64,000 nt of DNA from Candidatus Uhrbacteria bacterium GW2011_GWC2_41_11 (GCA_000996355.1 LCAH01000004.1:14501-78500); one strand, 5' to 3'. Counted from the stretch's first letter, positions 11,445-43,312 are shown. The notes: generated by a model from the letters alone, not told the origin. Numbers and translations: made by a program.

Positions 11445-11450
11445 CTTGTT

Positions 11451-21483: not shown

Positions 21484-21511
21484 CAAAAAAAGCGACGGGA
21501 GTTTCCGTCGC
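21484..21511 (-). terminator. Rho-independent terminator for the minus-strand lipoprotein gene
   Basis: Stem GCGACGG/CCGTCGC with a 6-nt loop. On the minus strand it is followed by T7 (the A-run at 21484-21491 on +). Confidence 0.55.
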
Positions 21512-21517
21512 ACTGAT

Positions 21518-22183
21518 TTATTCGTCGAGGCTGAGAATCATATCTGAGACCATCGTATCATCGACATCGAATCGATAGTAGTAGATAGTCTTGAGATCAT
21601 CCTCGATTTCTCCTTTGATATAACCACCATCATCAAGAACACCATAGAAGGTGTTTAATGAAATGATGGCATCAACACTGAATCCATCAAGGACAAGTTC
21701 GTCGAAACCATCGTTATCAATGTCGTAGATGATCGTTGTGATTTTCCATTCCCAGTCATCTTCGTCAAGATAGATTTCATCTGGTGCCAGTCCGAACTGG
21801 TCAGACGCCCAGGATGCCTTGTAGATCGCCCCATTCTCGGAAACCTTTGCCTCGAGCTCGACAGCTCGATAGTTTGTCTTTTGTCCGAGCACCTCATATG
21901 TTCCGGACTCAGAGACGGTAACCAAGCACTCGATCCCGGCCTTGCAGGACGAGACGAGTTCATCGTTTACCACGAACCCTTCGACCTGAATCGGAGCCGT
22001 GATGTTGATCTTCGCCGAGAAGGCGGTCGAAGTCGAATCATCATCGTCTCCCGACTGGGTCGGGGTGGGGGTGAGGTTGCCCACCTGATCGTCATCGTCA
22101 TTCGCATTGCCACCATCGAAGAGCCCGCACCCTCCCAAAAAGAGGGCGAGGGTCAGAAGGAACCACTTTCCTGTGGTCTTCAT
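21518..22183 (-). CDS. lipoprotein, GC-rich and probably horizontally acquired
   Basis: Start placed at MKTTGKWFLLTLALFLGGC, a lipobox of type LGGC. The acidic Asp-rich body uses GC-rich codons (GAC/CTC/GTC), unlike the neighbouring genes. Confidence 0.6.
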   Translation of the reverse strand: MKTTGKWFLLTLALFLGGCGLFDGGNANDDDDQVGNLTPTPTQSGDDDDSTSTAFSAKINITAPIQVEGFVVNDELVSSCKAGIECLVTVSESGTYEVLGQKTNYRAVELEAKVSENGAIYKASWASDQFGLAPDEIYLDEDDWEWKITTIIYDIDNDGFDELVLDGFSVDAIISLNTFYGVLDDGGYIKGEIEDDLKTIYYYRFDVDDTMVSDMILSLDE

Positions 22184-22649
22184 AGGTAAACCCTCCAAAT
22201 GCCCGCTGGTGCGGGTGCTATCTCCGGGTGACTCGAACGAGTCTTTTCGCAAAAGAGCGCGACGGTCTCCCTCTCCGTTGACCGCGTTTCAGTTTAGAGA
22301 AACGCTTTGAAACACGAATATGTTTCAACACCTTCCCCCAAAGTCAATTCTAGTAAGCCACAAAAGGATTGTTTTTGTCAAGCAAAATGGACGGAATTTA
22401 TAAAATTTGTTTATTTATCCACATTTTTGACTTTCTTTTTTCTGACATTTTGTCACAATACTTTCTGCGGATGACAAACTGTTCTTTGGGTTGTTCTTTC
22501 TTCTTCACAGACGAATCTTCTAGAAAAACTTGATCCTGTTTTGAAAAATGGGGGATTAAGTTCTCGTTACAGGAGACGTGTGTGCATTGTGTTGGAAATC
22601 GGTGCAGTCCGATATTGCACAATGTTTTCCATAGAAGGAGGAATAAACC

Positions 22650-22850
22650 ATGCAAGAAAACATGTTGTCATATCGTGAAGGCGGATATCTGTGCGGGTTT
22701 GGAGGATGTAAAGCGCCATGTCGACCAATTCCTATTTGGATGCCTGGGAGGATGTTTCCAAGTATGAATATGAAAAAAGAAGTACGGATAACGTTTGTTG
22801 TAGAGAATTTGATCTTTCGAACCACGCAACTGCAACGGATGTCTGCATAA
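22650..22850 (+). CDS. possible small Cys-containing protein (66 aa)
   Basis: Strong SD GAAGGAGGA 8 nt upstream of ATG 22650. A hairpin plus T-run follows at about 22855-22880. No homology recognised. Confidence 0.3.
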   Translation: MQENMLSYREGGYLCGFGGCKAPCRPIPIWMPGRMFPSMNMKKEVRITFVVENLIFRTTQLQRMSA

Positions 22851-22970
22851 CGGTCCGTCGTGCGGGAATCATCCTGCACGTTTTTTCCGAAAAAAAGCGA
22901 TCTGTTTTTATACAGACCGCTTCTCATCATCGTTTCGAATGTCTCGACGATCTCTGTAGATCGTCTTTTT

Positions 22971-24230
22971 TTATCCAATTTTTTCTTTTCCAATCCACGG
23001 TCGAAGAACTTCAGGAATGAGAACAGATCCATCTGCTTGCTGATAGTTTTCAAGAATAGCAATAAGAATGCGACCGATTGCAAATGCGGTTCCATTTAAT
23101 GCATGGGCTAATTCGTTTTTTCCATCCACAGTTTTATAACGAATGCGCAAGCGACGTGTTTGATAATCCGTTGTATTCGACGTTGAATGAGTTTCGCGAT
23201 ATTGATTTTGAGAAGGAATCCAAGTTTCGATGTCATAGGTGCGAGCAGAAGGACGTCCAATATCTCCCGAACAAAGACGAAGCACACGATAGGGAAGTTG
23301 AAGACCTTTCATGAGACGTTCCTCAAGTGAAAGAAGAAGTTCATGTTCTTCATCTGAATGTTCCGGCGTGGTAAAGCTAAACATTTCCACTTTATCAAAT
23401 TGATGCATACGCAAGATACCGCGCACATCCTTTCCATGGCTTCCGGCTTCACGTCGATAACAAGGAGAAAAACCAACATAGCGTAAAGGCAAGGATTCAA
23501 GGGGAAGAATTTCATCCATGTGCATAGGCCCAATGGATTGTTCTGATGTTCCAATAAGCACAGCATCGTCGTGTTTTAAATGATAGATCTCTTCCTCACC
23601 TCCATGCTCTAAATATCCCATGCCTGCCATGGATTTGATGCTAATAATATGAGGGGGAAGGACAGGAGTGAATTTTTCTGGAATAACAACGGACAGAATG
23701 TATTGAATGAGAGCAAATTCCATGAGTACTAAATCTCCTTTGAGATACACAAATCGACTTCCAGATACTTTTCCTGCACGTTCAATGTCGATGATCCCAA
23801 GACGTTCACCAATCGCCACATGATCTTGAATCGGAAAATCAAAAACACGCGGTTCATTTACCAAACGCAAAATTTCGTTGTCATCCGAATCCTTTCCTAT
23901 TTTGACATCTTCTCGAAGAAGATTTGGATATTTTTTTAATTCACGTTCCAAATCTGTTTCCATTTGGAGAAGTGTTTCTTCTGCTGCTCTGGCTTCTTCT
24001 TTAAGGGCGCGTCCTTCAGCGATGAGCGCATCTCTTATTTCTGCAGATGCTTGTCGGACAGTTTCTGCACTTTCGTGAATGCGACGGCGCACATCATCTA
24101 CGCGTTGAACAGCTTTTGTTCGTTCTTCTGCCAGTGTTTGAACAATATGAATATCAATGTCTGCACTGCGACGTCGATTATTTTCTTCGATAACGTCCGG
24201 ATGCTGAAGAAGGTATTTAAGATCAATCAT
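22971..24230 (-). CDS. serS: seryl-tRNA synthetase
   Basis: N-terminal coiled-coil arm (MIDLKYLLQHPD...), class II motifs, and FRRE/GSAxxxGR-type C-terminal core. Start taken at MIDLKY. Confidence 0.92.
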   Translation of the reverse strand: MIDLKYLLQHPDVIEENNRRRSADIDIHIVQTLAEERTKAVQRVDDVRRRIHESAETVRQASAEIRDALIAEGRALKEEARAAEETLLQMETDLERELKKYPNLLREDVKIGKDSDDNEILRLVNEPRVFDFPIQDHVAIGERLGIIDIERAGKVSGSRFVYLKGDLVLMEFALIQYILSVVIPEKFTPVLPPHIISIKSMAGMGYLEHGGEEEIYHLKHDDAVLIGTSEQSIGPMHMDEILPLESLPLRYVGFSPCYRREAGSHGKDVRGILRMHQFDKVEMFSFTTPEHSDEEHELLLSLEERLMKGLQLPYRVLRLCSGDIGRPSARTYDIETWIPSQNQYRETHSTSNTTDYQTRRLRIRYKTVDGKNELAHALNGTAFAIGRILIAILENYQQADGSVLIPEVLRPWIGKEKIG

Positions 24231-24685
24231 AAAATAGAGCCATGTGAGAAAAAGTGAATAATTCAACCTTTCTAATATGGAGGAAATTTACAAGAACGTC
24301 CAGATTTTCCAGAAGTGAAAATGTTATTCACAGAGTTTCGTTTGATTTTTTTGACATGTTTTTAGGTTATTTTTCTTCTATTTTTGTGATATTTTATTTG
24401 TTCGTGTCAAGAGAACATATCAAATTTTTTGGCTAATTTAAGCCAAAAAATGATTGACAAACTGCTTATTTTCTGATGAAATACCATCAGATGGATGAAA
24501 GAAATTTTGGCCATCATCCAGTTTAAAAGAACTGGATATCTTACACCATCCCTTCTGGTTCGTTCGTTTTTAAAAACTTGTTAAATATAGATTCTTGTTT
24601 TTGAAAACGCCGATTTGGCATTTTGGTTCAATGGATAAATAAGAAAAGAACTTGAGTGATAAGGGATGTTTATTACGCCTGTTTC

Positions 24686-24829: not shown

Positions 24830-26938
24830 ATGAAACGTTCTTTTGTTGCTTTTTGTTTCTTCATGATTCTGGAATGTTTGACTGTTTGTCATCCCATGTT
24901 CCAGACACAGGAAGAAGAAAATCTCTCCCATTCATTAAACATTTCTTCTGATCAGGGCGGCGGTGACGAATCTGTTTTGCATCTGCCTTTTGCAAAAGAC
25001 GATACGATTTTGTGTACGCAAGGAGCCTATGGTTCGTACAGCCATAATTATACGTCGACCAAGAAAGATTTAGACTTTGACACAAGCAATAGTGTTGATG
25101 AAGAAATCTACGCACCTGCAACCGGAATGGCTTATGTGCACACAGAAAGTGCAACGAGTGGTTTTGGGTACCATGTGAATATCGACTTGGGAGATGGAAC
25201 ATATGTTGTTCTCGGACACTTTAAGGAAATTTTTATTGGGAATGAATCAGAAGTTGCGGCAGGTGAACTTCTCGGATATGAGGGATGTACAGGAAGCTGT
25301 TCCGGTGACCATGTTCATATTGGTCTTCATGCCGGAGACGCGACACTTAAGGCTGAATACGGGGAATCCATTGATGTCTCGTATTATTCACAGGACACGA
25401 CGAATAAAGGAGAGTTTGAGAATATTGCAAGTATAGATTTTATTTGTGGAGTCGGAGATGAGAATGGAACAGAAGGACATTGGTATCGTTCAGCTCTTCC
25501 GGTTACTCTTTGGCATCCGAATGGAACGCTTGTCAAAACGCCAAATAGCACAGCCGTGTATCTTTTGGAAAATGGAGAAGCCAAATGGTTTGTGACCCAG
25601 GATATTTTCTGGAGTTACGAATATTCATTTAGTAACACGGTCTTAATTTCAGACGAAGAATTGAGTTGTTATGCGAGGGGAACTGACATAAACAAAGAAA
25701 CGTTTATGGATGCTGTTTCAGATCCAGATGGAAAGCTATGGTTTATTGTGGGATCTGCGACTGCTTCTGATCGATACCGTATACGAGTGAAAACCACGGC
25801 ATGGGATGCGGTTTTGGCATCCTGGGGACTTATGTATACATCCTCAGATCCTCCTCAGGTTGTTCAGAACCCGAATCCTTATTTGACGGATTGGCCTGTT
25901 GAAGACGGATATCTCCATTTTCGTGATGGTTCGATTCTCAAGGAAGAATCTCATTCGGATGTGTATGTGATATCCGATCAAGTTGCTCTTCCTGTACGAG
26001 ATTGGGAAACATATCTACTTCTTGGGTTGTATGATCTGGAAGTACTCGTTGTTCCAGACGGATCTGTTTTAAATGTACAAGAGCAGGTAGGGAGTTGTTC
26101 TTCAGGTATGTGGTGTCTGGATCGTGAGGCAGTAACGACCTGTGGTGGTGGATTAGAACTGGGAACCGGAGAAGAAGGCGGATCTGGAGACGGGGAAGTG
26201 ATAAAAGAAGAAACTCCGAGTCCATTCCCGTGCACAGATACGGATGTGGATGGATTTTGCAATACAGGAACAGACGGAGAAGATTGTTGGGATAAAAATG
26301 CATCTGTGTATCCTGGAGCGGAAGAGATATGCGGAAATGGAATTGATGAGGATTGTAGTGGAACAGATGCACTTTGTAATTCTCTCGAAATAGACACAGA
26401 CGGAGACGGAGTTTCGGACGCAAAAGACAATTGTCCATTTCACGACAATCCTGAACAGGACGACACAGATGCAGATGGGCTTGGAGATGCCTGTGACGCA
26501 GAAATATTCACCCCTGTTCCGACTTTCGTGTCGGAAGATGAAACAGAAAATGAACATGAAGAACCAAATACTGATTCCTCTGTCCTTCATGTTTCTTGGA
26601 CAGCGCCGTTTAGTGAAATCATGAATCTGATTACCATTTCAGGTGAATATCGTTTTGCAAACGGTTCGTATGGTTTTACATGGCGAGAACTTCTTTCGAC
26701 ACTGAGCGAACCATTAATCGATTATGAGATAACAGGCGTTTCTTTGGGAGACCAATTTCGTTTTTCCATTGAATTCGTAAACGAATATGCGCAAACAAGC
26801 TGGTCTTGTATTGGTCCATATCCTCCAGGATCACTTCAAGGAACGCCGGAAGCGGACGTGGACAATCTTCCACTTATGGTCGAAATGACAGATGATCCAA
26901 TATCAGACGGATGTGGATTGATCGTCGAAATTCTTTAA
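24830..26938 (+). CDS. secreted M23 (LytM-type) peptidoglycan peptidase with TSP3 and Cys-rich repeats
   Basis: Signal peptide, then the M23 catalytic motifs HVNIDLGDG and GYEGCTGSCSGDHVHIGLH. Cys-rich repeats follow (CTDTDVDGFC, DCSGTDALC), then TSP3 calcium-binding repeats (DTDGDGVSDAKDNCP, DDTDADGLGDACD). Confidence 0.8.
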   Translation: MKRSFVAFCFFMILECLTVCHPMFQTQEEENLSHSLNISSDQGGGDESVLHLPFAKDDTILCTQGAYGSYSHNYTSTKKDLDFDTSNSVDEEIYAPATGMAYVHTESATSGFGYHVNIDLGDGTYVVLGHFKEIFIGNESEVAAGELLGYEGCTGSCSGDHVHIGLHAGDATLKAEYGESIDVSYYSQDTTNKGEFENIASIDFICGVGDENGTEGHWYRSALPVTLWHPNGTLVKTPNSTAVYLLENGEAKWFVTQDIFWSYEYSFSNTVLISDEELSCYARGTDINKETFMDAVSDPDGKLWFIVGSATASDRYRIRVKTTAWDAVLASWGLMYTSSDPPQVVQNPNPYLTDWPVEDGYLHFRDGSILKEESHSDVYVISDQVALPVRDWETYLLLGLYDLEVLVVPDGSVLNVQEQVGSCSSGMWCLDREAVTTCGGGLELGTGEEGGSGDGEVIKEETPSPFPCTDTDVDGFCNTGTDGEDCWDKNASVYPGAEEICGNGIDEDCSGTDALCNSLEIDTDGDGVSDAKDNCPFHDNPEQDDTDADGLGDACDAEIFTPVPTFVSEDETENEHEEPNTDSSVLHVSWTAPFSEIMNLITISGEYRFANGSYGFTWRELLSTLSEPLIDYEITGVSLGDQFRFSIEFVNEYAQTSWSCIGPYPPGSLQGTPEADVDNLPLMVEMTDDPISDGCGLIVEIL

Positions 26939-27030
26939 ATGCAACCTCTCGTTTTTTTTCGAGAGGTTTTATCTTTTTTATTTCTCCAACGCGACGTCGC
27001 TCTGAATTGTGTGCATGTGCTATACTATTT

Positions 27031-29964
27031 ATGTCTATGAAGCGATGTCTTTTGCAGTGGGTGATCAAAGTGGATCGCCTATTTCACCGGCCAGTGAAGC
27101 CGTGGATCATTTTTGTTTTTCTTCTCATTTTTTTGGGTGGAAGTTTTTTGTTAACCCAAACAGTTTTCGCACAAACACCAGCTTCTAATACCGCAACAGC
27201 CAGCACAGGAAACACGGCAACCAAAACTGAACCAAGCATCAGTTATCCTGCTTTGATTGCATTGTATTTATCCTCGATTATTCTTTGGCTTGTCCAGGGT
27301 GTGGGTCAGCTTATTGTCCTTTTGATTGGCATTGCCGTTGTTCCACTCATGCAATACAACAATTTTGCTACTGCTCCAGTTATTGGGATGGGATGGGCAG
27401 TGATTCGGGATACGGTAAACATGTTTTTTGTCATTGTTCTGATTGTGATTGCATTTGGAACGATTCTTGGTCACCAACGATTCAAATGGCAACAACAAGT
27501 TCCGCGACTTCTTATCACAGCAATTGTTATCAATTTTAGCCGGACATTGTGTGGTCTCATGATTGATTTTAGTCAGGTCATCATGCTTACATTTGTGAAT
27601 GCACTGAAAGATATTGCCGGAGGAAATTTTGTGGAAATGTTCGGTCTGCGCCACATGTTAAATCTCAATCCAACCGCTATTATTTTTAAAGATGCAGCAG
27701 CAAGTTCTGCAGCAGCAGGCGTTCAGCCGGGAGATACATTTATTGCAGCCATTATTGCTCTTGTGATGATGCTCTGTGTACTCGTGGCTATTATTTTTCT
27801 TGCGATCATTCTTGCCTATCGGATCGTCATGCTTTGGATTTTGGTCACTATTGCTCCTCTTGCATGGTTTTTTAAAGGTGCCGAAGGGGTTATTACAACA
27901 AAGAGTAATCCATATGCGAAATGGTGGGCTCGTTTTTCATGTGTGTTACAAGTAGGACCTGTTCTTACATTTTTTCTCTGGCTTTCCCTTGCGGTTGCAG
28001 GAAGCGGCAATATTGGAGCTGAACAATTTCCGTCCTCAACCGCACCAAGTGGAGAATCAGGATTGGATGTGGGAAGTATTCTTGGCATTATGGATTCTGC
28101 ACGCATGACAAGTTTTATCATAGGTCTCGCACTTCTTTTTGCTGGATTTGATGCAGCGAAGGAAACATGTGAAGGAACTAGTGGATTTATCTCAGATCGA
28201 TTTAAACAAATGGGAGGTCTTACTCGCAAGATTGCTCAGTTTCCCGTTGGAGCAGCTGGGACTGCAGCGGCATGGACAGGTCGTCAAGCCATGCGTCCGG
28301 CACGATATGGCGCACGGAGTGTTTATGCAAATACGGTCGGTCGCGGACTTTCTGCTTTCCGAAACATGACAGCGAATCAAGCACAAAAATATGCGGGAAA
28401 GTTTTCTGGGAGTTCTGCGACTCGTCGTGCATTAGAAGGATATGCGTCTCAGCAAAAAGCGCGTCAGGCAGCAGAAACTGATTTTGCAGTTAAAGACAAG
28501 AAACCGATGAGTACAGAGTATATGTCTGCATATTTGCAAGGCGGTATTCCTCGAACGGAAGGTGCGCGCAAGGAATTTTTTGCTCGTTTGAAACAAGGAT
28601 TACAAGATGGAGATGTGCGCAAAGCTCTTGGAAATAAAGGATTGCAAAAAGTATTGAAGGAAACGATTGATCCGCGAACAGGAAAAACAGCATTGGAAAG
28701 TCTCGAAGATACCTATAAGGGCGATCCAGCATTCCAGAAACAAATGAAAGACTTGAAGGGTCGCATGCCTTCGGTTTTTGGAGTAGATGCCTTAAAAGAA
28801 ATTCGTGAAGCAAAAGATGTTCAAGATGTTGATAAATCTGAATTTGAAAGTAAAGATTTCCGCAATCATGTTTCAAAAATGGAGTATTCTTTTATGGATA
28901 AAGATGGAACACGTAAAACGCTTGAGGGTGGCATGACTGCGGCAATTCTTCAAGGGTATCTTGGGGGTAAAATAAAAGAACAATGGATTGATGGTGGAAA
29001 GAAAGTTGGAGAAGAATTGACTCCTGAGGTGTTGGCTTCCATGCCAGCAAATTTGATTGATGTGACGCAAATTAAACCGGAAATGATTACACCTACGGCA
29101 GCTGCAAATCTTTTGACAAATGGAAACGAGGCACAGGTGAAAGCCTTGGCAAACCGTGCGGATCTCAAGGAACGAATGAAGGGTGAGAATCTTAAGAAAA
29201 TTTTGCAGGAAGGATTGACAAGAGCCGGAAAAGACAAGGACAAGCGTGGAGCTTTGCGTGGAAATTTAGCCAGGCTTGGATTTGATCTAAATGAAGTGTT
29301 TGATTTCAAGGACGACCATTTTGTGGATCAATATGCACAGGATGATTTTTCTTCAGCTGTGGGAGAGGACAAGGATTTGATTTTGCGCGCAACAGAAGAT
29401 CCAACAAGTGAACTGGCAAAATTTACAGCTAGTGCGATGTCAACACATAGTGTCAGTCGTTTGCTGCGTGATTTCGAAGATATGTCAGATGATGATGTTC
29501 CAAAAAAGAAAGCGTTCAAAAAACAATTGGATGCTGTTTTTCAAGCCGTTGAATCACAAAAGGGTGTGATGGACAATCAAGCAAGAGAGGGTGAGCTTAC
29601 CAAAGCTCAAAAAGAAGAACATGGACGATTGAAAGAATTGTTAAAACAAAAACGATTGTTTGAACGAAAGGCAAAAACGTTTGCTGATCGTACACGCCCA
29701 CCATCTCCTCCTGCACCGTCTCCTTCTACTCCACCAACATTGAATCCAGAGCAACGACGTCAGAAAATAGAAACATTAATCAATCAGATCACCACACAAA
29801 AGAAAGTGGTGGATGATTCAGAACGGGCATACATGGCTATGCCTCGAGAAGAACGAGGGAAAGCAACAGGTCAGGAGGCTGAACGAAAATTAGAAGAGGC
29901 AAAACAATTTTTGAGAAGGATTGAAAGGGAATTACAAGATCTTTCCGGTCCTCCTGTAGTTTAA
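27031..29964 (+). CDS. polytopic membrane protein with long charged C-terminal domain (VirB6/TrbL-like, inferred)
   Basis: N-terminal signal sequence, then at least 6 TM helices over about 350 aa. A 600-aa Lys/Glu-rich extension ends in a Pro-rich segment (PPSPPAPSPSTPP). The role is inferred from operon position next to VirB4, not from homology. Confidence 0.45.
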   Translation: MSMKRCLLQWVIKVDRLFHRPVKPWIIFVFLLIFLGGSFLLTQTVFAQTPASNTATASTGNTATKTEPSISYPALIALYLSSIILWLVQGVGQLIVLLIGIAVVPLMQYNNFATAPVIGMGWAVIRDTVNMFFVIVLIVIAFGTILGHQRFKWQQQVPRLLITAIVINFSRTLCGLMIDFSQVIMLTFVNALKDIAGGNFVEMFGLRHMLNLNPTAIIFKDAAASSAAAGVQPGDTFIAAIIALVMMLCVLVAIIFLAIILAYRIVMLWILVTIAPLAWFFKGAEGVITTKSNPYAKWWARFSCVLQVGPVLTFFLWLSLAVAGSGNIGAEQFPSSTAPSGESGLDVGSILGIMDSARMTSFIIGLALLFAGFDAAKETCEGTSGFISDRFKQMGGLTRKIAQFPVGAAGTAAAWTGRQAMRPARYGARSVYANTVGRGLSAFRNMTANQAQKYAGKFSGSSATRRALEGYASQQKARQAAETDFAVKDKKPMSTEYMSAYLQGGIPRTEGARKEFFARLKQGLQDGDVRKALGNKGLQKVLKETIDPRTGKTALESLEDTYKGDPAFQKQMKDLKGRMPSVFGVDALKEIREAKDVQDVDKSEFESKDFRNHVSKMEYSFMDKDGTRKTLEGGMTAAILQGYLGGKIKEQWIDGGKKVGEELTPEVLASMPANLIDVTQIKPEMITPTAAANLLTNGNEAQVKALANRADLKERMKGENLKKILQEGLTRAGKDKDKRGALRGNLARLGFDLNEVFDFKDDHFVDQYAQDDFSSAVGEDKDLILRATEDPTSELAKFTASAMSTHSVSRLLRDFEDMSDDDVPKKKAFKKQLDAVFQAVESQKGVMDNQAREGELTKAQKEEHGRLKELLKQKRLFERKAKTFADRTRPPSPPAPSPSTPPTLNPEQRRQKIETLINQITTQKKVVDDSERAYMAMPREERGKATGQEAERKLEEAKQFLRRIERELQDLSGPPVV

Positions 29965-29994
29965 ATGAATGTCTTTTGAAAAAGGTCTTAGGAT

Positions 29995-31752
29995 ATGCAA
30001 GAAGAGAAATCCCGTTCCATGTCTGAACTTCCGGATGAAGTTCGAGATTTTCTTCTCGAACCTGCTCTTTTAGACTGTATTGATGAGATTCGTGAAAAAC
30101 ATGCACTCGCAGAAAATACAGAGGATGTGTTGATTGATTTTGCTGAACAAATAACACTTGGTTCTTTTTCTTTGGAATTGTTGCCACAGAAAATTTCCGC
30201 GGAATTACACATGGAAGAATCAAAAGCAAAACAAATTGCCATTGATCTTGCCGGACATCGTCTTCTTCCTATCGCTCCTTTAATAGGTGATGTTGCTCAG
30301 CAAATAGTTGTATGGGGTGGAAATCTTGAGGATTTTGCGCATATTCCAAAGGTAGAGATTCATATTTTTAGCCCAGAATATGTTGTTCGAGAGACGTTAG
30401 GTGAAGCACATCTCAATACATTAGATCCAAAATTACAGGATCGATTGGAATTTATTTTTACCTCTTATCTAAAAGGCAAGCGTAATGAGACAGAAATAAA
30501 AGAAGTTTTGATGCGTTCATCAAAAGTGGGAGGTATGGATCTTGATAGTGAAACAGCAGATCGTCTTCTTATTTTATTTCGAGATAAACAGAAATTTGCT
30601 AAGATCAATTTTCATTCCCAAGAAGAATCTTCAACATTTACACCAACTGTTTTGGTAAAGAAAACGGAAAAGCCTATCCAATTAGAAAAAAAAGAATCTT
30701 CTGTTCCTGAACCAAAAGCAAAAATGGAAGTACTTTTTGCAAAAGAAGATGAACAGGAAATTACTCGACTGACTTCTTTTGTCCAGGAAAATCTTCCTCC
30801 TGTTTCCCAACTGGATGTTTCTTTGAAAGATGCTGTTATTCAAGTGATTCGTGAAGCAAATTTGGATCTAAAAGATGAAGAAATAAAAAAACGATTTGTC
30901 TCTCTTGTGGAAGCTCGTTTGCGGGATGTACGGGATCCGTATGAGACACGTTCTCAGTTAGAATATCCTTCGGAAAAAGGCGGGCTTGGTTTGTCTGGTC
31001 TCACACTGGTTCGAACTCTTGAGTGTATTGAACGTATTTTTGGGGAACGTCAGAATCTTCTTAAAGACCAAGTAAACAAACAGAAAGCCGTCATGGTAGA
31101 ACAAAAGAAACAAGAGGAAGCAGAACGAGAATCATTAGCACGAAAAGAAGCTTCGACACTCACAAAACGATATATAGAGATGACAGGAAAAATACCAACG
31201 GAATCAATTCAACCTGCCTCTGTATCAGGAACAAGAGTGACAACAGCCATGTCTTTACAAGAAGCAGCTATAAGAAGGGAAGAGAAAATTGACAAGCAAA
31301 AAGTAAAAGAGGCATTCACATCAGCAAAGCCAGTTGCACCAGTTATTGTGCCACGTCTTTCTCAAGGGAGTATTTCTTCTGTATCTACTCCGCGGCCTCA
31401 GGTGGAAGATATTAAATTTGTTCGGAAATTATCAGGACCACTTGAGGAACTTGAACAGATGACATTAACCGAATTTCGTCGGCTGTCCCGCGATCCAAAA
31501 GAAGCAGTCTTGAAATTAAAAGACAAAATTGACTTATTGGAAGAACAAGGATACGAAAAAAAGATTCATGGGATCAAGGCGTGGCGTGAATCTCCTCTGA
31601 ATCGGTTGTATCTTGAACTGTTTCAAGAAGCACTTCGTCGAGGTCGCCCACTTCAGGAGATTGCAGATGAACGCCGTACAGCGAATCAGAATATGTTAAC
31701 AGCCGGAGAGATCGATGTCTTGGTGGATTTGAATGCCTATGTACGATTTTGA
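29995..31752 (+). CDS. hypothetical protein (585 aa) in T4SS-like cluster
   Basis: Soluble, with a charged coiled-coil centre and no NTPase motifs. Short spacings to neighbours imply co-transcription. Confidence 0.5.
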   Translation: MQEEKSRSMSELPDEVRDFLLEPALLDCIDEIREKHALAENTEDVLIDFAEQITLGSFSLELLPQKISAELHMEESKAKQIAIDLAGHRLLPIAPLIGDVAQQIVVWGGNLEDFAHIPKVEIHIFSPEYVVRETLGEAHLNTLDPKLQDRLEFIFTSYLKGKRNETEIKEVLMRSSKVGGMDLDSETADRLLILFRDKQKFAKINFHSQEESSTFTPTVLVKKTEKPIQLEKKESSVPEPKAKMEVLFAKEDEQEITRLTSFVQENLPPVSQLDVSLKDAVIQVIREANLDLKDEEIKKRFVSLVEARLRDVRDPYETRSQLEYPSEKGGLGLSGLTLVRTLECIERIFGERQNLLKDQVNKQKAVMVEQKKQEEAERESLARKEASTLTKRYIEMTGKIPTESIQPASVSGTRVTTAMSLQEAAIRREEKIDKQKVKEAFTSAKPVAPVIVPRLSQGSISSVSTPRPQVEDIKFVRKLSGPLEELEQMTLTEFRRLSRDPKEAVLKLKDKIDLLEEQGYEKKIHGIKAWRESPLNRLYLELFQEALRRGRPLQEIADERRTANQNMLTAGEIDVLVDLNAYVRF

Positions 31753-31844
31753 CAGCAGAATTTTTCTAGAATGAAGATTTAGATGAAAAAAATTCTGCAT
31801 GAGACTGACGTGTGTAGATATGATAGAATATTTAGAACCAAAGT

Positions 31845-32282
31845 ATGCCGGATCAATATGTTGTCCCGCAATTTATCGAGGTGGAAGATAAGATTCTCGG
31901 TCCTCTTTCCGTGCGTCAGTTTTTGATTTTACTTGTTGGATTCATGATGGATGTTATTTTATATAAACTGTTGAGTTTCGTGGTTTTCCTTTTAGTGGCT
32001 ATTCCTATCATTGTATTTGTCGGTGTCCTTGCTCTTACGAAGGTGAACGGCATGCCGTTTCATTTTTTTCTTCTGAATATCATTCAGTCATTTCGCAAAC
32101 CTAAGTTACGCATTTGGGATAAACAACTTACCGATGAGGAATTACGTCTTCATCTTGGAGAAGCAGCCCCTGTTGTTCTTTCTCCTTTTATTCGCAAAGC
32201 ACCTATGACGACTTCGCGACTTCAGGAATTAACGCTTGTCGTGAACACAGGAGGAGTGTATCGACCTGAAGACGAAGATTAG
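31845..32282 (+). CDS. small two-TM protein, PrgI/TcpE (VirB3-like) family candidate
   Basis: 145 aa with the N-terminal pattern IEVEDKILGPLSVRQFLILLVG followed by two TM helices. It sits directly upstream of the VirB4 homologue, as in Gram-positive T4SS loci. Confidence 0.5.
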   Translation: MPDQYVVPQFIEVEDKILGPLSVRQFLILLVGFMMDVILYKLLSFVVFLLVAIPIIVFVGVLALTKVNGMPFHFFLLNIIQSFRKPKLRIWDKQLTDEELRLHLGEAAPVVLSPFIRKAPMTTSRLQELTLVVNTGGVYRPEDED

Positions 32283-32292
32283 TATCGAAGAT

Positions 32293-32973
32293 ATGGAAAG
32301 CAAGACATTAGCAAAACCAAAACCAGGTCCCGCAACCCAGCGATATCTTGATATTGCAGAAATTCGCGATGATGTTGTGATTTTAAAAGATGGAACATTA
32401 CGTGCTGTTTTGTTAGCTGCGAGCATAAATTTTGCCTTGAAATCTGTTGATGAACAAGAAGCGATTGTTCAGGCATATACGGCTTTTTTGAATGGATTGG
32501 AATATCCGATCCAAATTGTCATTCAGTCGCGGAAAATGAATATTGACCCGTATCTCGAGGAACTTGGAGAACAGGAAAAGAAGACAGAAAATGAATTGTT
32601 ACGCGTACAAATTGCTGATTACCGGACATTTGTCCAAGAACTTGTTCAGCTTGGAGAAATCATGCAGAAAAAGTTTTATGTGATCGTTCCATTTGATCCA
32701 GGCACAGATAAGCGAAAAAATTTTTGGACGCGATTTTCCGGAGCGGTTTCTCCTGCGCTGGGAATTCGATTGAAGGAAACACAATTTCGAGAGCGGCGGG
32801 AAGAGCTTTTGAAACGAGTAGAAAATATTCGTTCTCAATTAAATAGTATGAGTGTGACCGGGGTGTTGCTTGATACACAAAGTCTGATTGAACTGTATTA
32901 TACTTGTTACAATCCTGATGTCTTCGAAACAGAAAAATTATCAGATCTGTCTAAAGTCCGTTACGAAACGTAA
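32293..32973 (+). CDS. VirB4-family N-terminal domain (in frame with the downstream ATPase ORF)
   Basis: DIAEIRDDVVILKDGTLRAVLLAASINFALKSVDEQEAI...YPIQIVIQS matches the N-terminal domain of Gram-positive VirB4 (TcpF/PrgJ-like) ATPases. It ends at a single TAA, 6 nt before the next ORF, in the same frame. Confidence 0.6.
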   Translation: MESKTLAKPKPGPATQRYLDIAEIRDDVVILKDGTLRAVLLAASINFALKSVDEQEAIVQAYTAFLNGLEYPIQIVIQSRKMNIDPYLEELGEQEKKTENELLRVQIADYRTFVQELVQLGEIMQKKFYVIVPFDPGTDKRKNFWTRFSGAVSPALGIRLKETQFRERREELLKRVENIRSQLNSMSVTGVLLDTQSLIELYYTCYNPDVFETEKLSDLSKVRYET

Positions 32974-32979
32974 TATATT

Positions 32980-35073
32980 ATGCCAATTGAGATTGGACAA
33001 TTAGGAAAAACAACTCCTGCGGCGCCATTGGAACCGCCAAAGGCTCCAAAACCGGCGCAGGAGAAATTAGCCGTTGAACGTATTGCGTTGGAAGAAGAAC
33101 GTATTTATCGTCGTGGAGTTGTGACGGTTCGGGATATTATTTCTCCGGCCTCTTTTGACGTTTCTCCAAATCATCTGATTCTTTCCGGTATATACGTACG
33201 GACATTATTTGTTATTACGTATCCTCGTTACATTGGTCTTGGATGGTCTGCTCCTCTTATCAATTTAAATAAAACATTCGATGTTGCCATGTATTTTTAT
33301 CCGGTGAAGTCGAATGTTATTTTAAAACAGCTTCAAAAACGCGTGGGATATCTTGAGGCTGGAATTATGACCGATGCGGAAAAAGGGAAACCGCGCGATC
33401 CGCTTCGAGAGACAGCGCTTCGTGACATTGAAGAATTGCGCGATGCATTGACCCAAGGCATTGAACATTTTTTTCAATTTGCTTTTTACATCACGATCTA
33501 CGCAAAAAATCAGGAAGAGTTGGAACGATTGACAGGCGATCTCGAAAGCATGTTTGGCAGCAAATTGATTTATACAAAAAAAGGATATTATCAAGCTGAA
33601 CAAGGGTTCAATTCCACCATGCCACTCTGCAATGACGAACTCATGATTACCTACAACATGAACACGTCGCCCATTGCCGCTTCATTCCCTTTTATTTCTT
33701 CGGATCTTACCTCTGATCACGGTATTCTGTATGGAATCAACCGTCATAATAATTCCCTGATTCTTTTTGATCGTTTTAGTTTGCAAAATGCGAATTCCGT
33801 TGTATTTGCCACTTCTGGTGCAGGAAAATCGTATGCCGTGAAACTCGAAATTTTACGAAGTCTCATGATGGGAATTGACGTGATTGTGATTGATCCGGAG
33901 ATGGAATATAAACATCTTTCTGAAGCAGTCGGAGGGACCTATATCAATGTTTCTCTTGCCAGTCAGTCAAAAATCAATCCATTTGATTTGCCGCGTCCAA
34001 AAGGAGAAGAGGTGCGTGTGGAAGATGTCATCCGCAGTGCTATTATTACTCTAAAAGGTCTTCTGCGTATCATGATTGGAAAGCCGCTTGGGGAGGCAGG
34101 AGTAGTTGGATTTACACCAGAAGAAGATTCCATTTTAGATCGAGCGCTTATCGAAGCGTATGCGAAAAAAGATATTACCGCAGATATTGCAACCCTTGTT
34201 GATGTCGAACCTCCAATTCTCAGTGATTTTCAAGATGTTTTGGAAGGAATGGAAGGCGCGGAAGATTTGGTTGCACGTCTTCATAAATATACAGATGGAA
34301 CATTTGCTGGTCTTTTGAATTCTCCCACAACCGTTGAAATGCATAATCAACTTGTGATTTTTTCCGTTCGCGATCTTGAAGATGAATTGCGTCCAATGGC
34401 TATTTATACGATCGTGAACTATATCTGGAATGTGGTGCGCTCTGAACGCAAGAAACGTATTTTGGTGATTGATGAAGCGTGGTGGCTCATGCAGCACGAG
34501 GATTCGGCTAAATTCATTTTTGCGCTTGTGAAACGCTGCCGTAAATATTTTCTTGGGGTCACAACAATCACACAGGATGTGAATGATTTTCTTCGCTCTC
34601 CATACGGTCAGGCTATTGTGACCAACTCATCGATTCAATTATTGTTTAAACAGTCTCCGGCAGGTGTAGATCTTGTTCAAAAAACGTTTAACCTAACAGA
34701 CGGAGAAAAATATTTATTGCTTGAATCTGGGATAGGGGAAGGATTGTTTTTTGCCGGACAGAAGCATGTAGCCATTAAAGTGGTTGCGTCCTATGCAGAA
34801 GATCAAATTGTTACTACGAATCCACAGCAATTATTGGACATTGAAAAAGCACGTAAAGATTTTGAAAAACAGCTTGCCAATCGAGAGGAGCAAGAAGCCC
34901 TTGTCGAGGTTCCGGAGATAGATTTAGAAACACCTTCTGACACAGAACAAGGAGAACAAGAAGCTCTTGCAGTTCAAACGGCAGCAGCGGCAAGTGCGGC
35001 AGCGGAGTTTTTAACAAAAGAGGAACAAGGTCAAGAAGAAGCGGATCGTATTCGTCGAGAGCTGGCTGGATAA
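32980..35073 (+). CDS. VirB4-like type IV secretion ATPase (C-terminal ATPase part)
   Basis: Walker A TSGAGKSY and the VirB4-diagnostic Walker B ILVIDEAWWLM. Acidic C-terminal tail. Confidence 0.8.
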   Translation: MPIEIGQLGKTTPAAPLEPPKAPKPAQEKLAVERIALEEERIYRRGVVTVRDIISPASFDVSPNHLILSGIYVRTLFVITYPRYIGLGWSAPLINLNKTFDVAMYFYPVKSNVILKQLQKRVGYLEAGIMTDAEKGKPRDPLRETALRDIEELRDALTQGIEHFFQFAFYITIYAKNQEELERLTGDLESMFGSKLIYTKKGYYQAEQGFNSTMPLCNDELMITYNMNTSPIAASFPFISSDLTSDHGILYGINRHNNSLILFDRFSLQNANSVVFATSGAGKSYAVKLEILRSLMMGIDVIVIDPEMEYKHLSEAVGGTYINVSLASQSKINPFDLPRPKGEEVRVEDVIRSAIITLKGLLRIMIGKPLGEAGVVGFTPEEDSILDRALIEAYAKKDITADIATLVDVEPPILSDFQDVLEGMEGAEDLVARLHKYTDGTFAGLLNSPTTVEMHNQLVIFSVRDLEDELRPMAIYTIVNYIWNVVRSERKKRILVIDEAWWLMQHEDSAKFIFALVKRCRKYFLGVTTITQDVNDFLRSPYGQAIVTNSSIQLLFKQSPAGVDLVQKTFNLTDGEKYLLLESGIGEGLFFAGQKHVAIKVVASYAEDQIVTTNPQQLLDIEKARKDFEKQLANREEQEALVEVPEIDLETPSDTEQGEQEALAVQTAAAASAAAEFLTKEEQGQEEADRIRRELAG

Positions 35074-35100
35074 CAAGAGAAGTTTTAAACAGATATTTTT

Positions 35101-35679
35101 ATGACACGAAAGAAAAAAATTGTGATTGCACTGGGAGTCATTTTTCTTTTATTACTTCTTTTTTTTCTTTTTTGGTTTTTGTCTAGACAAAAAAAATCCG
35201 CAGCTTCTGTCGTGACTCCTCCTGTTGTTCAAGAACAGATTCCGGTAGCTAAACCTCGAAATACGGAAGAAAAAGCTCTGCCACTTTATCTCAATACAGA
35301 ACAGACTTCTTCAGAAATTTCTTTGCAAAATCTCGCACAGACATTTACGGAACGGTATGGAAGCTATTCCAATGAAAGTGATTTTGCTAACTTATATGAT
35401 GTTCTTGATTTAATGAGTGCAACATTCCGTGCGGAAACGGAACAAACGATTGCAACCGCTCAAGTTCCTGATCATTATTATGGAATTACCACTCATGTTC
35501 TTTCTGTAAAAATGGATTTGATGGATGAAACAGGAGGAACAGCAAAAGCAACTGTGAATACTCAGCGAGAAGAGGCAACGAAAAGTATCCAAAATGTTCA
35601 AGTGCGTTATCAATATCTTTCACTTTTGTTTGTGAAAGAACAGGGTATATGGAAGGTCGACGGAGCTGCTTGGGAATAG
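35101..35679 (+). CDS. bitopic membrane protein (possible VirB8-like component)
   Basis: N-terminal TM anchor KKKIVIALGVIFLLLLLFFLFWFL with a C-terminal globular domain of about 150 aa. The assignment rests on position and size only. Confidence 0.4.
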   Translation: MTRKKKIVIALGVIFLLLLLFFLFWFLSRQKKSAASVVTPPVVQEQIPVAKPRNTEEKALPLYLNTEQTSSEISLQNLAQTFTERYGSYSNESDFANLYDVLDLMSATFRAETEQTIATAQVPDHYYGITTHVLSVKMDLMDETGGTAKATVNTQREEATKSIQNVQVRYQYLSLLFVKEQGIWKVDGAAWE

Positions 35680-36368
35680 TGTGTGACACGATTGCAGATT
35701 GGTTGTTTCCTTGTTTTTGTCTTCAATGCAAGCAAGAAGGAAATACCATGTGTGAGATATGCAAAGAATCGTATACACCAAAACGGACAGGAGATACTTG
35801 TCCGTTTTGTCGTAAAAAATCTTTGGGTTCATTAACATGTGAATCTTGTCGTACTTTGGTTGCTTTGGATAGATGTTTGTCTCTTGGATGGTACCACGAT
35901 TCAGTTCTTCGAGAAGCGATTCGAGCCGCAAAATATACAGATGATCCAGCTCCATGGAAGCTGTTTCCGGAATGGATGCGAAAAATGTCTATAGAAAATA
36001 TTTTTTTCGGAGATACATGGGTTGTTTCTTTTGTTCCGCTTCATGTATCACGTCGGCGAGAGCGAGGCTTTGATCAAGCGGAACGAATTGCTCATTTGGT
36101 TGGAGAGGCAACGAAATTTCCTGTTGTCGATTTATTGGAACGTGCGGAATGGACAGACCCACAAGCACAGCGAGATGCAAGAGAACGTCAAGTTGGAGAT
36201 ATGGATGGTATCTTTCAGGTCATAAAACATCCAATTCCATCTCGGGTTATTTTATGCGACGATGTTTTGACAAGCGGGGCAACCATGGATGCAGCCGCTC
36301 AGATTCTGAAACAAGCCGGGGCAGAACAAGTTTGTGGGTTTGTTCTTGCCCGTCGCGGAGGGGAATAA
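35649..36368 (+). CDS. comFC: competence protein ComFC (phosphoribosyltransferase family)
   Basis: N-terminal 4-Cys zinc finger (CxxC...CxxC) and the PRTase motif VILCDDVLTSGATM. The exact start is uncertain because the ORF overlaps the upstream gene. Confidence 0.75.
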   Translation: MEGRRSCLGIVCDTIADWLFPCFCLQCKQEGNTMCEICKESYTPKRTGDTCPFCRKKSLGSLTCESCRTLVALDRCLSLGWYHDSVLREAIRAAKYTDDPAPWKLFPEWMRKMSIENIFFGDTWVVSFVPLHVSRRRERGFDQAERIAHLVGEATKFPVVDLLERAEWTDPQAQRDARERQVGDMDGIFQVIKHPIPSRVILCDDVLTSGATMDAAAQILKQAGAEQVCGFVLARRGGE

Positions 36369-36417
36369 CCTTTGAGGCTTGCTTCCTTTGCTTGTTTCCG
36401 ATATGCTTTTTGCGCGC

Positions 36418-36438
36418 GGAGAGGTACCCAAGAGGCTG
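36418..36438 (+). repeat. 21-nt direct repeat copy 1 (GGAGAGGTACCCAAGAGGCTG), identical to the 5' end of tRNA-Ser at 36764-36784
   Basis: Exact 21/21 match to tRNA positions 1-21. Downstream sequence lacks anticodon and T arms, so this is not a tRNA. The two copies bracket the GIY-YIG gene. Confidence 0.7.
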
Positions 36439-36498
36439 CGGGTCCGCCGGAGAGAAACGGAGGCGGAAAGGGGCGAGTTTACTTACAGAAAGAATCGT

Positions 36499-36810
36499 AT
36501 GTCTTTGATATATCTTCTGTTTAGTCCAAAAATAAATCGATTTTATATTGGTTCTTCTAGAGAAAATACTGTTGAATCCCGTTTGAAACGTCATAATGAA
36601 GGAAGAGTAAAATCGACAAAGTTTGGAAGTCCTTGGAAAGTTGTCTGCGTTGAACATTTTGAAACGTATACTCAAGCTCGAAAAAGAGAATTGTATTTGA
36701 AAAGTGGTGTTGGAAGAGGAAAAATAGCAAAAGTATTCGGTTATTTGAAAGGTGAAAATATATGGAGAGGTACCCAAGAGGCTGAAGGGGCGGGTTTGCT
36801 AAACCTGTAG
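36499..36810 (+). CDS. GIY-YIG nuclease superfamily protein (YhbQ/YazA-like)
   Basis: The motif IYLLFSPKINRFYIGSSRENTVESRLKRHNEG is a GIY-YIG core. The ORF has no stop before running 47 nt into the tRNA-Ser gene, so its true end is uncertain. Confidence 0.6.
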   Translation: MSLIYLLFSPKINRFYIGSSRENTVESRLKRHNEGRVKSTKFGSPWKVVCVEHFETYTQARKRELYLKSGVGRGKIAKVFGYLKGENIWRGTQEAEGAGLLNL

Positions 36811-36857
36811 GTCGGGGTTTTCCCGGCGCGAGGGTTCGAATCCCTCTCTCTCCGCCA
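36764..36857 (+). tRNA. tRNA-Ser (anticodon GCU)
   Basis: Acceptor stem GGAGAGG/TCTCTCC, 3-bp D stem, anticodon loop TTGCTAA, long variable arm, T loop GGGTTCGAATCCC, encoded CCA. Confidence 0.85.
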
Positions 36858-38350: not shown

Positions 38351-38548
38351 ATGTCTACCATCAGTAAAAACATTCGCAAATTAAGAGAACAAAGAGGCAT
38401 CTCGCAAGATAGACTTTCTAAATTGGCAGATATTTCTTTGAATACTATTGCCAAGTTAGAACTCAACGAAAATCAAAATCCCACCATTGAAACTTTGCAA
38501 AAAATCGCAAAGGCTTTAGATGTTAAAGTTGAGGATTTAATAAAATAA
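38351..38548 (+). CDS. XRE-family HTH transcriptional regulator (RM controller-like)
   Basis: 65 aa with a helix-turn-helix (ISQDRLSKLADISLNTIAKLE). It lies 4 nt upstream of hsdM. Confidence 0.8.
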   Translation: MSTISKNIRKLREQRGISQDRLSKLADISLNTIAKLELNENQNPTIETLQKIAKALDVKVEDLIK

Positions 38549-38552
38549 AAAT

Positions 38553-39937
38553 ATGTTTGAACAAGCATTAAAAAATATTGATGATATCTTGCGGGCGGAT
38601 AATGCTGGGAGTGCCCTTGATTATATTGAGCAGACTTCGTGGATTTTGTTTTTGAAATATCTGGATGATTTGGAAAAAGACAAAGAAAAAAGCGCGCGCT
38701 TGGCTGGGAAAAAATACAAATATATTCTATCGCCTGAATTCCGCTGGCAAGTATGGGCATGTCCCAAGACTGCTGACGGAAAAATTGATCATCATAAAGC
38801 GATGGATGGTGACGATTTGAAAGATTTTGTTAATAACAAGCTTTTTCCGTATTTGAAAAAATTTAGAGTTGAAGATTCCAACACTATTGAAAATAAAATT
38901 GGAGAAATTTTTCATGAGCTCAAAAATAAGATTCAGAGTGGGTATTCCTTGCGAAATATTTTGGACATCGTGGATAAACTTCATTTTCAAACTAACGAAG
39001 AAAAACACGAGCTTTCCCATCTCTATGAAAGCAAAATACAAAACATGGGCAATGCTGGTCGTGATGGTGGGCAATATTATACCCCTCGTCCGCTGATTAA
39101 AACGATTGTCAAAGTTGTTGATCCAAATCTTGGCGAAACTATTTATGACGGAGCTTGTGGAAGTGCTGGATTTTTGGTGGAGGCCTTTAATTATTTGACA
39201 GAGCAGCGCGAAAAATTAAGTTCCAAAGAATGGGATGTTTTGCAAACAAAAACTTTCTTTGGCAAAGAAAAAATCACTTTGCCATATATTATCGGTGTGA
39301 TGAATATGATTTTGCATGGCATAGAAACGCCGAATATAAAACATAAAAATACTTTGTCGGAAAACTTGGCGGATATTCAAGAAAAAGACCGTTATGATCT
39401 CGTCATCGCCAATCCGCCTTTCTGTTTTTGCAACATTTCATCAAAATTCTCAAAGCTGGTGGGCGAGCGGGTATTGTTATTAAAAATACTTTTCTTTCCA
39501 ACACCGACAACGCTTCAGTCAGTTTGCGAAAATTGCTTTTGGAAAATTGCAATCTGCACACGGTTTTGGATTTGCCCGGAGGCGCCTTTCAAGGCGCGGG
39601 AGTAAAAACTGTTGTTTTATTTTTTGAAAAAGGCGCGCCAACGAAAAAGGTTTGGTTTTATCAACTTAATCTCACGCGTAATCTCGGCAAGGGTAATCCT
39701 TTAAACGAAAACGATTTGGTGGAATTTGTGGAGTTACAAAAAACTAAGGCGGACAGCACAAATTCATGGTCAATAGATGTGAAAAATGTTGATCAAAATA
39801 CTTTTGATTTATCGGTAAAAAATCCGAATAAAAATGACGAGGTGGTTTTAAGAGAGTCAAAAGAGATTTTGGAGGAGATGAGGAAGTTGGATGGGGAGAA
39901 CGGGGAGATTTTGGATAACATTAAAAAATTATTATGA
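38553..39937 (+). pseudogene. hsdM: Type I RM methyltransferase HsdM, disrupted after motif IV (NPPF) by a frameshift/short deletion
   Basis: The N-terminal HsdM domain and motif I (DGACGSAGFL) read in frame A up to NPPF at 39411-39422. The continuation FLQHFIKILKAGGRAGIVI is in another frame, beginning with TTG at 39428. Only about 3 residues separate NPPF from FLQH, where about 25 are expected. Inserting one T in the T5 tract 39425-39429 restores a single ORF. Confidence 0.7.
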
Positions 39938-42076: not shown

Positions 42077-42153
42077 GTTTGTATATATTGTTTGACTTAA
42101 AAGATACAAACTGGTATACTTTGTATACATTATAAATAAGATAGATACAAGTT

Positions 42154-43308: not shown

Positions 43309-43312
43309 TTTT

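Follow-up and report, generated by a model that had tools for sequence, protein, structure and literature searches.

We analyzed a gene cluster resembling a type IV secretion system (T4SS) at positions 24830 to 36368 of a 64,000-nucleotide stretch of DNA from Candidatus Uhrbacteria bacterium GW2011_GWC2_41_11 (GCA_000996355.1, LCAH01000004.1:14501-78500), a stretch referred to here as the window. The cluster comprises nine co-directional open reading frames (ORFs) on the + strand, tightly packed with intergenic gaps of -31 to +98 nt, and a translation check found all of them to be uninterrupted (Table 1). An earlier description generated from the DNA alone (the sequence-only reading) had proposed a co-directional cluster at this location; every ORF that it listed was recovered at the positions given and on the + strand, but it had missed the TrsD-like gene that precedes virB4.

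TABLE 1 Features of the cluster and of the region downstream of comF in three related loci
Feature	Position	Strand	Basis
M23 metallopeptidase, 702 amino acids (aa)	24830-26938	+	PF01551 6.6e-11; MopE motif PF11617 1.7e-10
Hairpin then T-run, possible attenuator/terminator	26943-26968	+	Consensus scan
Extended VirB6/TrbL-like membrane protein, 975 aa from M43	27037-29964 (ORF opens 26911)	+	Topology, sub-threshold TrbL
585-aa soluble protein without family match	29995-31752	+	Synteny
PrgI/VirB3-like protein, 145 aa	31845-32282	+	PF12666 1.9e-12
TrsD/TraC-like protein, 226 aa	32293-32973	+	NF041427 1.7e-5; NF045975 1.2e-8; PF26593
VirB4 ATPase, 697 aa	32980-35073	+	NF045971 336.6 bits; PF19044 3.6e-28
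VirB8-like bitopic protein, 192 aa	35101-35679	+	AlphaFold2 (AF2) fold, Foldseek
ComF/ComFC, 239 aa	35649-36368	+	TIGR00201 4.1e-16; PRK11595 3.3e-13; PF00156 5.4e-7
RecG/RadA stretches downstream of ComF	L019 16254-19788; L035 16848-20255; L041 16840-18912

Components of the cluster

The VirB4 ATPase named in the sequence-only reading was recovered with NF045971 (VirB4-like conjugal transfer ATPase, CD1110 family), for which the cut-off is 325 bits. A Walker A motif (ATSGAGKS) is present, as is a Walker B motif (ILVIDE) at residue 494, and the protein carries an acidic C-terminal extension. It is 64 to 82% identical across 43 loci from the class ABY1, and no more than 36% identical to the VirB4 proteins of plasmids, the best of which are from Actinobacteria and Firmicutes (35 to 36%, with two Actinobacteria plasmid proteins reaching 36%). 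Judged from its sequence, this VirB4 is of the monoderm CD1110/MPF_FATA type, in agreement with the earlier description of the apparatus as Gram-positive-type. With CedB it matched over the P-loop only, at 47 bits where the cut-off is 700, and its match to CedD was likewise limited to the P-loop and far below the cut-off. The assignment of the preceding small protein to PrgI/VirB3 also held (Table 1); it has two transmembrane (TM) helices by hydropathy, and its gene adjoins the virB4 module. Between the two lies the 226-aa gene, whose NF045975 match aligns to VirB4 model positions 112 to 233. This gene is read as the N-terminal domain of VirB4 encoded separately (TrsD/TraC-like), and it was a separate ORF in all of the related loci described below.

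At the 5' end of the cluster, the M23 peptidase has a hydrophobic N-terminal signal by hydropathy and intact catalytic motifs, HxxxD (HVNID) at residue 115 and HxH (HVH) at residue 161. The sequence-only reading had described an M23 peptidase with TSP3 repeats, and both elements were found, the TSP type-3 repeat (PF02412) at a sub-threshold 1.1e-3. The protein is thus a secreted peptidase with MopE/TSP3-like calcium-binding repeats, and is presumed to open the cell wall in the role of VirB1. A consensus scan placed a hairpin with a 9-bp stem containing five GC pairs directly 3' of its stop codon, within the overextended 5' end of the 1,017-aa ORF that follows. This hairpin is weak evidence of a terminator because promoter and terminator scans of the region gave counts at or near chance. 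The true start of the 1,017-aa ORF is most likely M43, which is favored because the homologues begin there and because of the hairpin and T-run upstream of it.

The 1,017-aa ORF gave no curated family match by itself. From hydropathy and AF2 predictions, its product has a signal-like N terminus, about 7 to 8 TM helices and a helical tail of approximately 545 aa rich in K, E, R and D, which the sequence-only reading had put at 600 aa. Being strongly basic where it starts, the tail is probably cytoplasmic. At least 360 homologues were found, each of approximately 900 to 1,000 aa, and those with a named source were mostly from Uhrbacteria. An AF2 model of residues 1 to 468 had a pLDDT of 77.8, and the top Foldseek matches in the PDB included R388 TrwI/VirB6 (probability 0.66 to 0.82, E value of about 0.3) and DotA, both weak. 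Pfam TrbL was the top match, below its cut-off, in one of 50 members of the family (5e-5) and in four of nine syntenic orthologues taken from ABY1 lineages that are more distant (5e-5 to 2.5e-3); these matches scored 18 to 23.6 bits against a cut-off of 25.9 and covered most of the profile. A profile search of the PDB with the whole family returned only coiled coils (SMC, apolipoprotein) matching the tail, and was uninformative on the membrane domain. Because of its topology, the recurrent sub-threshold TrbL matches and the weak TrwI and DotA fold matches, the protein is a probable, though not proven, extended VirB6, and the VirB6/TrbL-like call of the sequence-only reading is retained at that strength.

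The 585-aa protein has no TM segments by hydropathy and no match in Pfam, NCBIfam, PHROG or the sequences of the PDB. A profile built from nine homologues nevertheless retrieved 3,033 representatives of 50%-identity clusters at an E value of ≤1e-3, including 1,731 at ≤1e-30. Its conserved features are a central motif, RLRDVRD..ETR..LE...KGGLGL, and a C-terminal domain of approximately 110 aa (FRRLSRDP...W..SP). Three proteins of the cluster, of 1,017, 585 and 192 aa, had been thought to have no assignable family, and PHROG scans of these unknowns found no match. This holds for the 585-aa protein, a member of a large conserved family and the sole truly unassignable component, but not for the 1,017-aa probable VirB6 or for the 192-aa protein, which is VirB8-like.

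The 192-aa protein gave no match to Pfam VirB8 (PF04335) itself. An AF2 model built from a family of 24 homologues had a pLDDT of 84.4 overall and of more than 93 in the domain, and predicted a TM helix at residues 3 to 29, a disordered linker, and three helices on a four-stranded sheet (NTF2-like). Foldseek searches of the PDB returned, in order, CagV, R388 TrwG/VirB8, PrgL, TcpC, an IcmL-like protein and Bartonella TrwG, with E values from 1.4e-4 to about 6e-3 and target-normalized TM-scores of approximately 0.67; generic NTF2 enzymes were interspersed among these VirB8 homologues. A family member that is 46% identical over its full length (P0128) passes Pfam VirB8, with 28.5 bits against a cut-off of 23.2. 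The UniRef label of the 192-aa protein is TcpC, and the best hhalign template was PrgL, although this match was weak (probability 16.6%, E value of 1.5e-3). Profile searches against PDB sequences with the VirB8-like and 585-aa families returned nothing meaningful. The VirB8-like call of the sequence-only reading is thus confirmed at the level of the modeled structure, with the relative passing Pfam VirB8.

The last protein contains four CxxC pairs in a zinc-ribbon N terminus and a phosphoribosyltransferase-like domain with the phosphoribosyl pyrophosphate-binding loop VILCDDVLTSGAT. Its best NCBIfam matches were to ComF (TIGR00201) and GntX, both below their curated cut-offs, and together with the CxxC pairs and the loop they uphold the earlier ComFC call. 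The comF gene begins inside the VirB8-like gene, with which it shares 31 nt. An overlap at the predicted start was present in 21 of the 31 related loci in which comF follows that gene, and was an identical 31 nt in 16 loci, including one from Buchananbacteria. The conserved overlap favors the 239-aa start of ComF and cotranslation with the VirB8-like gene. About 20 kb 3' of the T4SS-comF operon, comEC (56917-59390, + strand) is encoded in two overlapping frames, the first (56917-58503) covering the DUF4131 and Competence domains and the second (58368-59390) the metallo-beta-lactamase domain, which reflects either a frameshift or a genuine split.

Conservation of the locus and comparison with known systems

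Relatives of the 585-aa protein were sought by scanning a single genome of each species with degenerate patterns, followed by local hidden Markov model searches of the ORFs; the scan used a six-member alignment, as the nine-member alignment was too divergent. This gave 48 loci from Uhr-, Falkow-, Magasanik-, Buchanan- and Kerfeldbacteria and from metagenome-assembled genomes (MAGs) labeled 'Parcubacteria'. The order 585-aa gene, PrgI, TrsD and VirB4 was kept wherever the contig extended far enough (48 of 48 loci). Directly 5' of the 585-aa gene was the VirB6-like gene in 30 of 32 loci, a VirB8-like gene followed VirB4 in all 34 loci, and comF came next in 31 of these 34. The accessory proteins were only 22 to 50% identical across loci. 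An M23 gene directly 5' of the VirB6-like gene was found in Uhrbacteria loci only, as was linkage of M23 and SerRS genes to the cluster; the SerRS gene of the window is inverted relative to most Uhrbacteria loci. In L019, L035 and L041, a RecG gene lies on the + strand 1 to 1.5 kb 3' of comF, and in L019 and L035 it is followed by a RadA-like gene on the - strand. In the window, GIY-YIG, tRNA-Ser, NUDIX and DHFR genes stand after comF in their place, the RecG/RadA neighborhood having been lost in this lineage.

The upstream flank consists of housekeeping genes (GroES/GroEL, a release factor, an epimerase, KsgA and SerRS), together with a giant 3,271-aa putative surface protein. Downstream are the GIY-YIG, tRNA-Ser, NUDIX and DHFR genes, a low-GC type I restriction-modification (R-M) island, LeuRS and ComEC. 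The GC content of the cluster (0.39 to 0.43) is like that of its flanks. VirB4 was residue-identical in GCA_000994285.1, GCA_003523645.1 and metagenome scaffolds from the Rifle aquifer, and all of the cluster proteins are attributed by NCBI and UniRef to Candidatus Uhrbacteria GW2011 MAGs. Entries in Table S1 of PMC12102498 place Uhrbacteria under class ABY1 of the Patescibacteria, and sister Uhrbacteria assemblies appear among the entries of the genome table of that paper.

Neither a relaxase nor a type IV coupling protein (T4CP) came up when all ORFs of ≥130 aa in the 64 kb, plus ten shorter intergenic ones, were scanned against Pfam, and none of the ORFs in the 64 kb carries an integrase domain. 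Using PcfC (T4CP) and PcfG (relaxase) of pCF10 as phmmer queries, no homologue was detected in the window or within 10 kb on either side in the 48 relatives. The sequence-only reading had likewise reported no relaxase or VirD4, and had argued on that ground for DNA uptake or a host-interaction function, without choosing between the two, and against conjugation; this interpretation is supported here and coincides with the published one. Since the 64 kb contain neither a relaxase, T4CP or integrase nor a module of the oriT type, the cluster is not a conjugative element; it is chromosomal, vertically inherited, and not an integrative and conjugative element (ICE), in agreement with PMC12102498 and PMC10633639.

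Quinonero-Coronel et al. (2025; PMC12102498), who surveyed 3,035 genomes of Patescibacteria, described a monophyletic Patescibacteria VirB4 clade nested in MPF_FATA, with TrsD, VirB3/PrgI and VirB6 usually adjoining virB4. In that survey VirB8 homologues were nearly confined to ABY1, some VirB1-type hydrolases had M23 domains, relaxases were found in 103 genomes only, and T4CP homologues were mostly far from virB4. KsgA was commonly nearby, and comF, recG and radA occurred within the T4SS loci of ABY1. The locus in the window, with comF adjacent and a VirB8 homologue detectable, is like these ABY1 loci. Of the Patescibacteria-clade systems, that of S. epibionticum (SEML1_0006-0019) offers a close comparison. 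It too is chromosomal and relaxase-less, has the core order of a VirB6-like protein of approximately 1,000 aa followed by PrgI, a TrsD-like protein and VirB4, encodes a peptidoglycan hydrolase as well as a protein of the NTF2-like type within the locus, and has KsgA nearby; its 1,088-aa protein, in the equivalent position, is a structural match to VirB6/TrbL (PMC10633639). The two loci differ in that the hydrolase is an upstream M23 peptidase in the window and a downstream lysozyme in S. epibionticum, in that a 585-aa soluble protein takes the place of a 998-aa membrane protein, and in that the VirB8-like gene of the window follows virB4 and is overlapped by comF. The array of VirB2-like pilins in S. 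epibionticum was not found in the window.

The cluster shares with the MPF_FATA systems (pCF10 Prg/Pcf, pGO1/pSK41 Trs, pIP501 Tra, pCW3 Tcp and Tn916) a CD1110-type VirB4, PrgI/VirB3 and a large cell wall hydrolase, as well as TrsD (pGO1 subclass) and an NTF2-fold VirB8-like protein (PrgL, TraM, TcpC). An extended VirB6 with a C-terminal domain is presumably shared with TcpH of pCW3. What sets the window apart from these systems is the lack of a T4CP (PcfC/TcpA), a relaxase, accessory factors, a surface adhesin and a plasmid/ICE backbone, the distance of its VirB4 from the plasmid homologues, and the vertical inheritance of the locus among housekeeping genes. The ComB system of H. pylori is likewise a T4SS without VirD4 or a relaxase, and works with competence proteins of the ComEC/ComFC type; however, it is a diderm MPF_T system with VirB2, VirB7, VirB9 and VirB10, no homology beyond the superfamily level was found, and the comB genes are not in an operon with comF. 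The archaeal Ced system (CedA/A1/A2/CedB), which imports rather than exports, also pairs an ATPase of the VirB4/HerA superfamily with a polytopic membrane protein, but the CedB match of the window VirB4 covers the P-loop region only and CedA homologues were not found.

The top-scoring plasmid VirB4 (382 bits, E value of 5e-113, 35% identity) was from the Pontibacillus sp. ALD_SL1 megaplasmid (NZ_CP062975.1; L055). Its locus (350336-361354) contains a pilin-like gene of the Mbov_0395 family, genes for proteins of 145, 779, 116 and 274 aa, a short VirB4 and a 1,050-aa M23 peptidase, and is located beside flagellar genes on an 898-kb 'plasmid'. Like the window, it is devoid of T4CP and relaxase genes, in its case over 14 kb; in contrast to the window, it lacks ComF and a homologue of the 585-aa protein, and its host is a member of the Firmicutes. 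As a single sequence, its 779-aa protein gave no detectable match to the VirB6-like family in hhalign. This locus may be a relative of the relaxase-less architecture from outside the candidate phyla radiation.

Nature and possible function of the system

Given the parts identified, their synteny and the absence of conjugation modules from the 64 kb, we consider it likely that the cluster is a chromosomal, vertically inherited T4SS of the Patescibacteria clade, derived from MPF_FATA and with the ABY1 architecture. Systems of this kind are already known, having been published in 2025 together with their linkage to comF, recG and radA in ABY1; the locus is therefore no new kind of system, but a clean example of that architecture.

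Its function, judged by analogy, may be that of a host-contact translocon needed for episymbiosis and coexpressed with ComF, a proposal to which we assign slightly less than an even chance. This proposal is favored because the homologues in S. epibionticum are essential whereas comEC, comF and dprA are not. Using transposon sequencing, Wang et al. (2023; PMC10633639) found the T4SS genes of S. epibionticum to be essential for growth on its host; comEC, comF and dprA were dispensable, with comEC being required for transformation. A 2025 review (PMC12857230) reached the same conclusions.

How the translocon may be assembled is inferred from homology to characterized monoderm T4SSs, and the placing of the tail, the part played by the 585-aa protein and the nature of the substrate are likewise inferred. 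The secreted M23 endopeptidase would open the peptidoglycan locally, and the VirB6-like protein, the two-TM PrgI/VirB3 and the NTF2-fold VirB8-like protein would form a membrane translocon. The split VirB4, made up of the TrsD-like N-domain and the ATPase, would dock on PrgI and power assembly and transport, while the VirB6 tail and the 585-aa protein would be a probable cytoplasmic platform replacing the missing locus-encoded coupling protein. The overlap with comF could mean either that the machine is coexpressed with the ComEC/ComF DNA-uptake route or that it passes DNA to ComEC/ComF.

Several observations weigh against this interpretation. The essentiality data are from Saccharimonadia, whose locus differs in having a pilin array and a lysozyme and in being unlinked to comF (PMC10633639), and the tight, conserved overlap of comF argues for a link to DNA handling closer than mere coexpression. 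Membership of the Patescibacteria VirB4 clade is suggested by levels of identity and by taxonomy. The VirB6-like assignment is below every curated threshold, and hhalign of the family against PrgH, a single-sequence template, was negative. More generally, hhalign of the 585-aa and VirB6-like profiles against single sequences from pCF10 (PrgD-PcfD), Tn916 and Pontibacillus found nothing, such templates being too weak for a remote-homology test of the three families. No VirB2-like pilin was recovered: the small ORFs of the window gave no match to PF18895 or PF04956, and no small two-TM ORF is adjacent. Finally, VirD4-like genes are common elsewhere in Patescibacteria (5,713 in 2,918 genomes; PMC12102498), so that a distant T4CP is possible.

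In the main alternative, the ABY1 T4SS is dedicated to DNA import, passing single strands from the host or environment to the cotranslated ComF and then to DprA/RecA, RecG and RadA, as a monoderm counterpart of the ComB T4SS of H. pylori or of archaeal Ced. We regard this as rather unlikely, though it accounts for a number of findings: comF regularly follows the VirB8-like gene, with the same 31-nt overlap recurring across distant lineages; RecG and RadA come after ComF in related loci, both in our comparison and in PMC12102498; relaxase and T4CP are not present, as in ComB; ComEC is encoded within the same 64-kb window; and Patescibacteria are without nucleotide synthesis (PMC10633639). Adjacency in streamlined genomes, however, would point to coexpression and not to physical coupling. 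The only genetically tested member of the Patescibacteria transforms via ComEC, and as its T4SS is essential while comEC, comF and dprA are dispensable, the T4SS must have another primary role. In addition, VirB4 is of the FATA type and not of the ComB/MPF_T type, its CedB match being limited to the P-loop, and type IV pili, by which DNA is usually captured, occur widely in the phylum (PMC10633639). The further proposal that the ABY1 T4SS, ComF and RecG/RadA constitute one machine for DNA import and recombination, in which the 585-aa subunit and the VirB6 tail replace the coupling protein, is doubtful. If true, it would give monoderm bacteria their first T4SS-based competence system, and make the 585-aa protein a new cytoplasmic subunit.

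That the cluster is an ordinary or decaying Gram-positive-type ICE, with its relaxase and coupling protein located elsewhere or lost, is very improbable. The recognizable components are all homologous to conjugation proteins of pCF10, pGO1, pCW3 and Tn916-type elements, and homologues of T4CPs are often found at other places in the genomes of Patescibacteria (PMC12102498). The tRNA-Ser gene 400 bp 3' of comF also raised this possibility, which was rejected on synteny, composition and the missing integrase: the 64 kb contain no integrase, relaxase or T4CP, the GC content equals that of the flanks, and the locus recurs in the same housekeeping context, with its conserved genes intact, in Uhr-, Falkow-, Magasanik-, Buchanan- and Kerfeldbacteria. 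Relaxases, moreover, occur in just 103 of the 3,035 Patescibacteria genomes surveyed (PMC12102498). A chance juxtaposition or non-functional cluster with over-read weak similarities, to which the three of nine proteins lacking a curated-threshold match alone and the chance-level promoter and terminator scans might point, is effectively ruled out by synteny and conservation, as the catalytic and nucleotide-binding motifs are intact, the ORFs are uninterrupted, VirB4 is strongly conserved, and the short intergenic gaps and a gene order kept in 48 independent loci exclude a chance arrangement.

Patescibacteria, which are dependent on host cells, account for a large part of bacterial diversity, and no T4SS other than theirs is known to be essential for the survival of its owner. 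The residual interest of a T4SS of this architecture lies in the conserved 31-nt overlap of the VirB8-like gene and comF, the unannotated and universally syntenic 585-aa family of approximately 3,000 clusters at 50% identity and the extended VirB6 of approximately 1,000 aa, which make the question of its cargo testable. If the link with ComF is one of physical coupling, it would reveal that organisms unable to make nucleotides have a new way of acquiring DNA.

Neighboring genes in the window

The SerRS gene (22971-24266, - strand) is located on the other side of the T4SS cluster from tRNA-Ser(GCT) (36764-36857), which overlaps the 3' end of the small GIY-YIG nuclease ORF (36379-36857 region, + strand). 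Upstream, the product of the giant 3,271-aa ORF (11451-21266, + strand) has a hydrophobic anchor at its N terminus, a single carbohydrate-binding domain (CBM_4_9) and a C terminus rich in Cys, and may be a host-adhesion surface protein. The ORF is preceded by a gene for a 260-aa TM protein (the two spanning 10662-21266) with TSP3-like, D-rich calcium-binding motifs resembling those of the M23 peptidase. The 1.7 kb between the giant gene and SerRS (21267-22970) hold weak ORFs only (one of 244 aa with a TTG start and one of 179 aa), neither with a family match, and a bidirectional hairpin at 21492-21511; a search of this interval for RNA families and tRNAs detected none.

Downstream, the type I R-M island (38351-45706, + strand) has a GC content of 0.32 to 0.37 and the order HTH regulator, hsdM, a RelA/SpoT-domain gene (39934-40968), hsdS, a Fic-domain gene (42154-43308) and hsdR. 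The hsdM gene is split by a frameshift, 38553-39605 matching positions 2 to 136 of the N6_Mtase profile and 39428-39937 matching positions 166 to 305, and this split is identical in independent assemblies.

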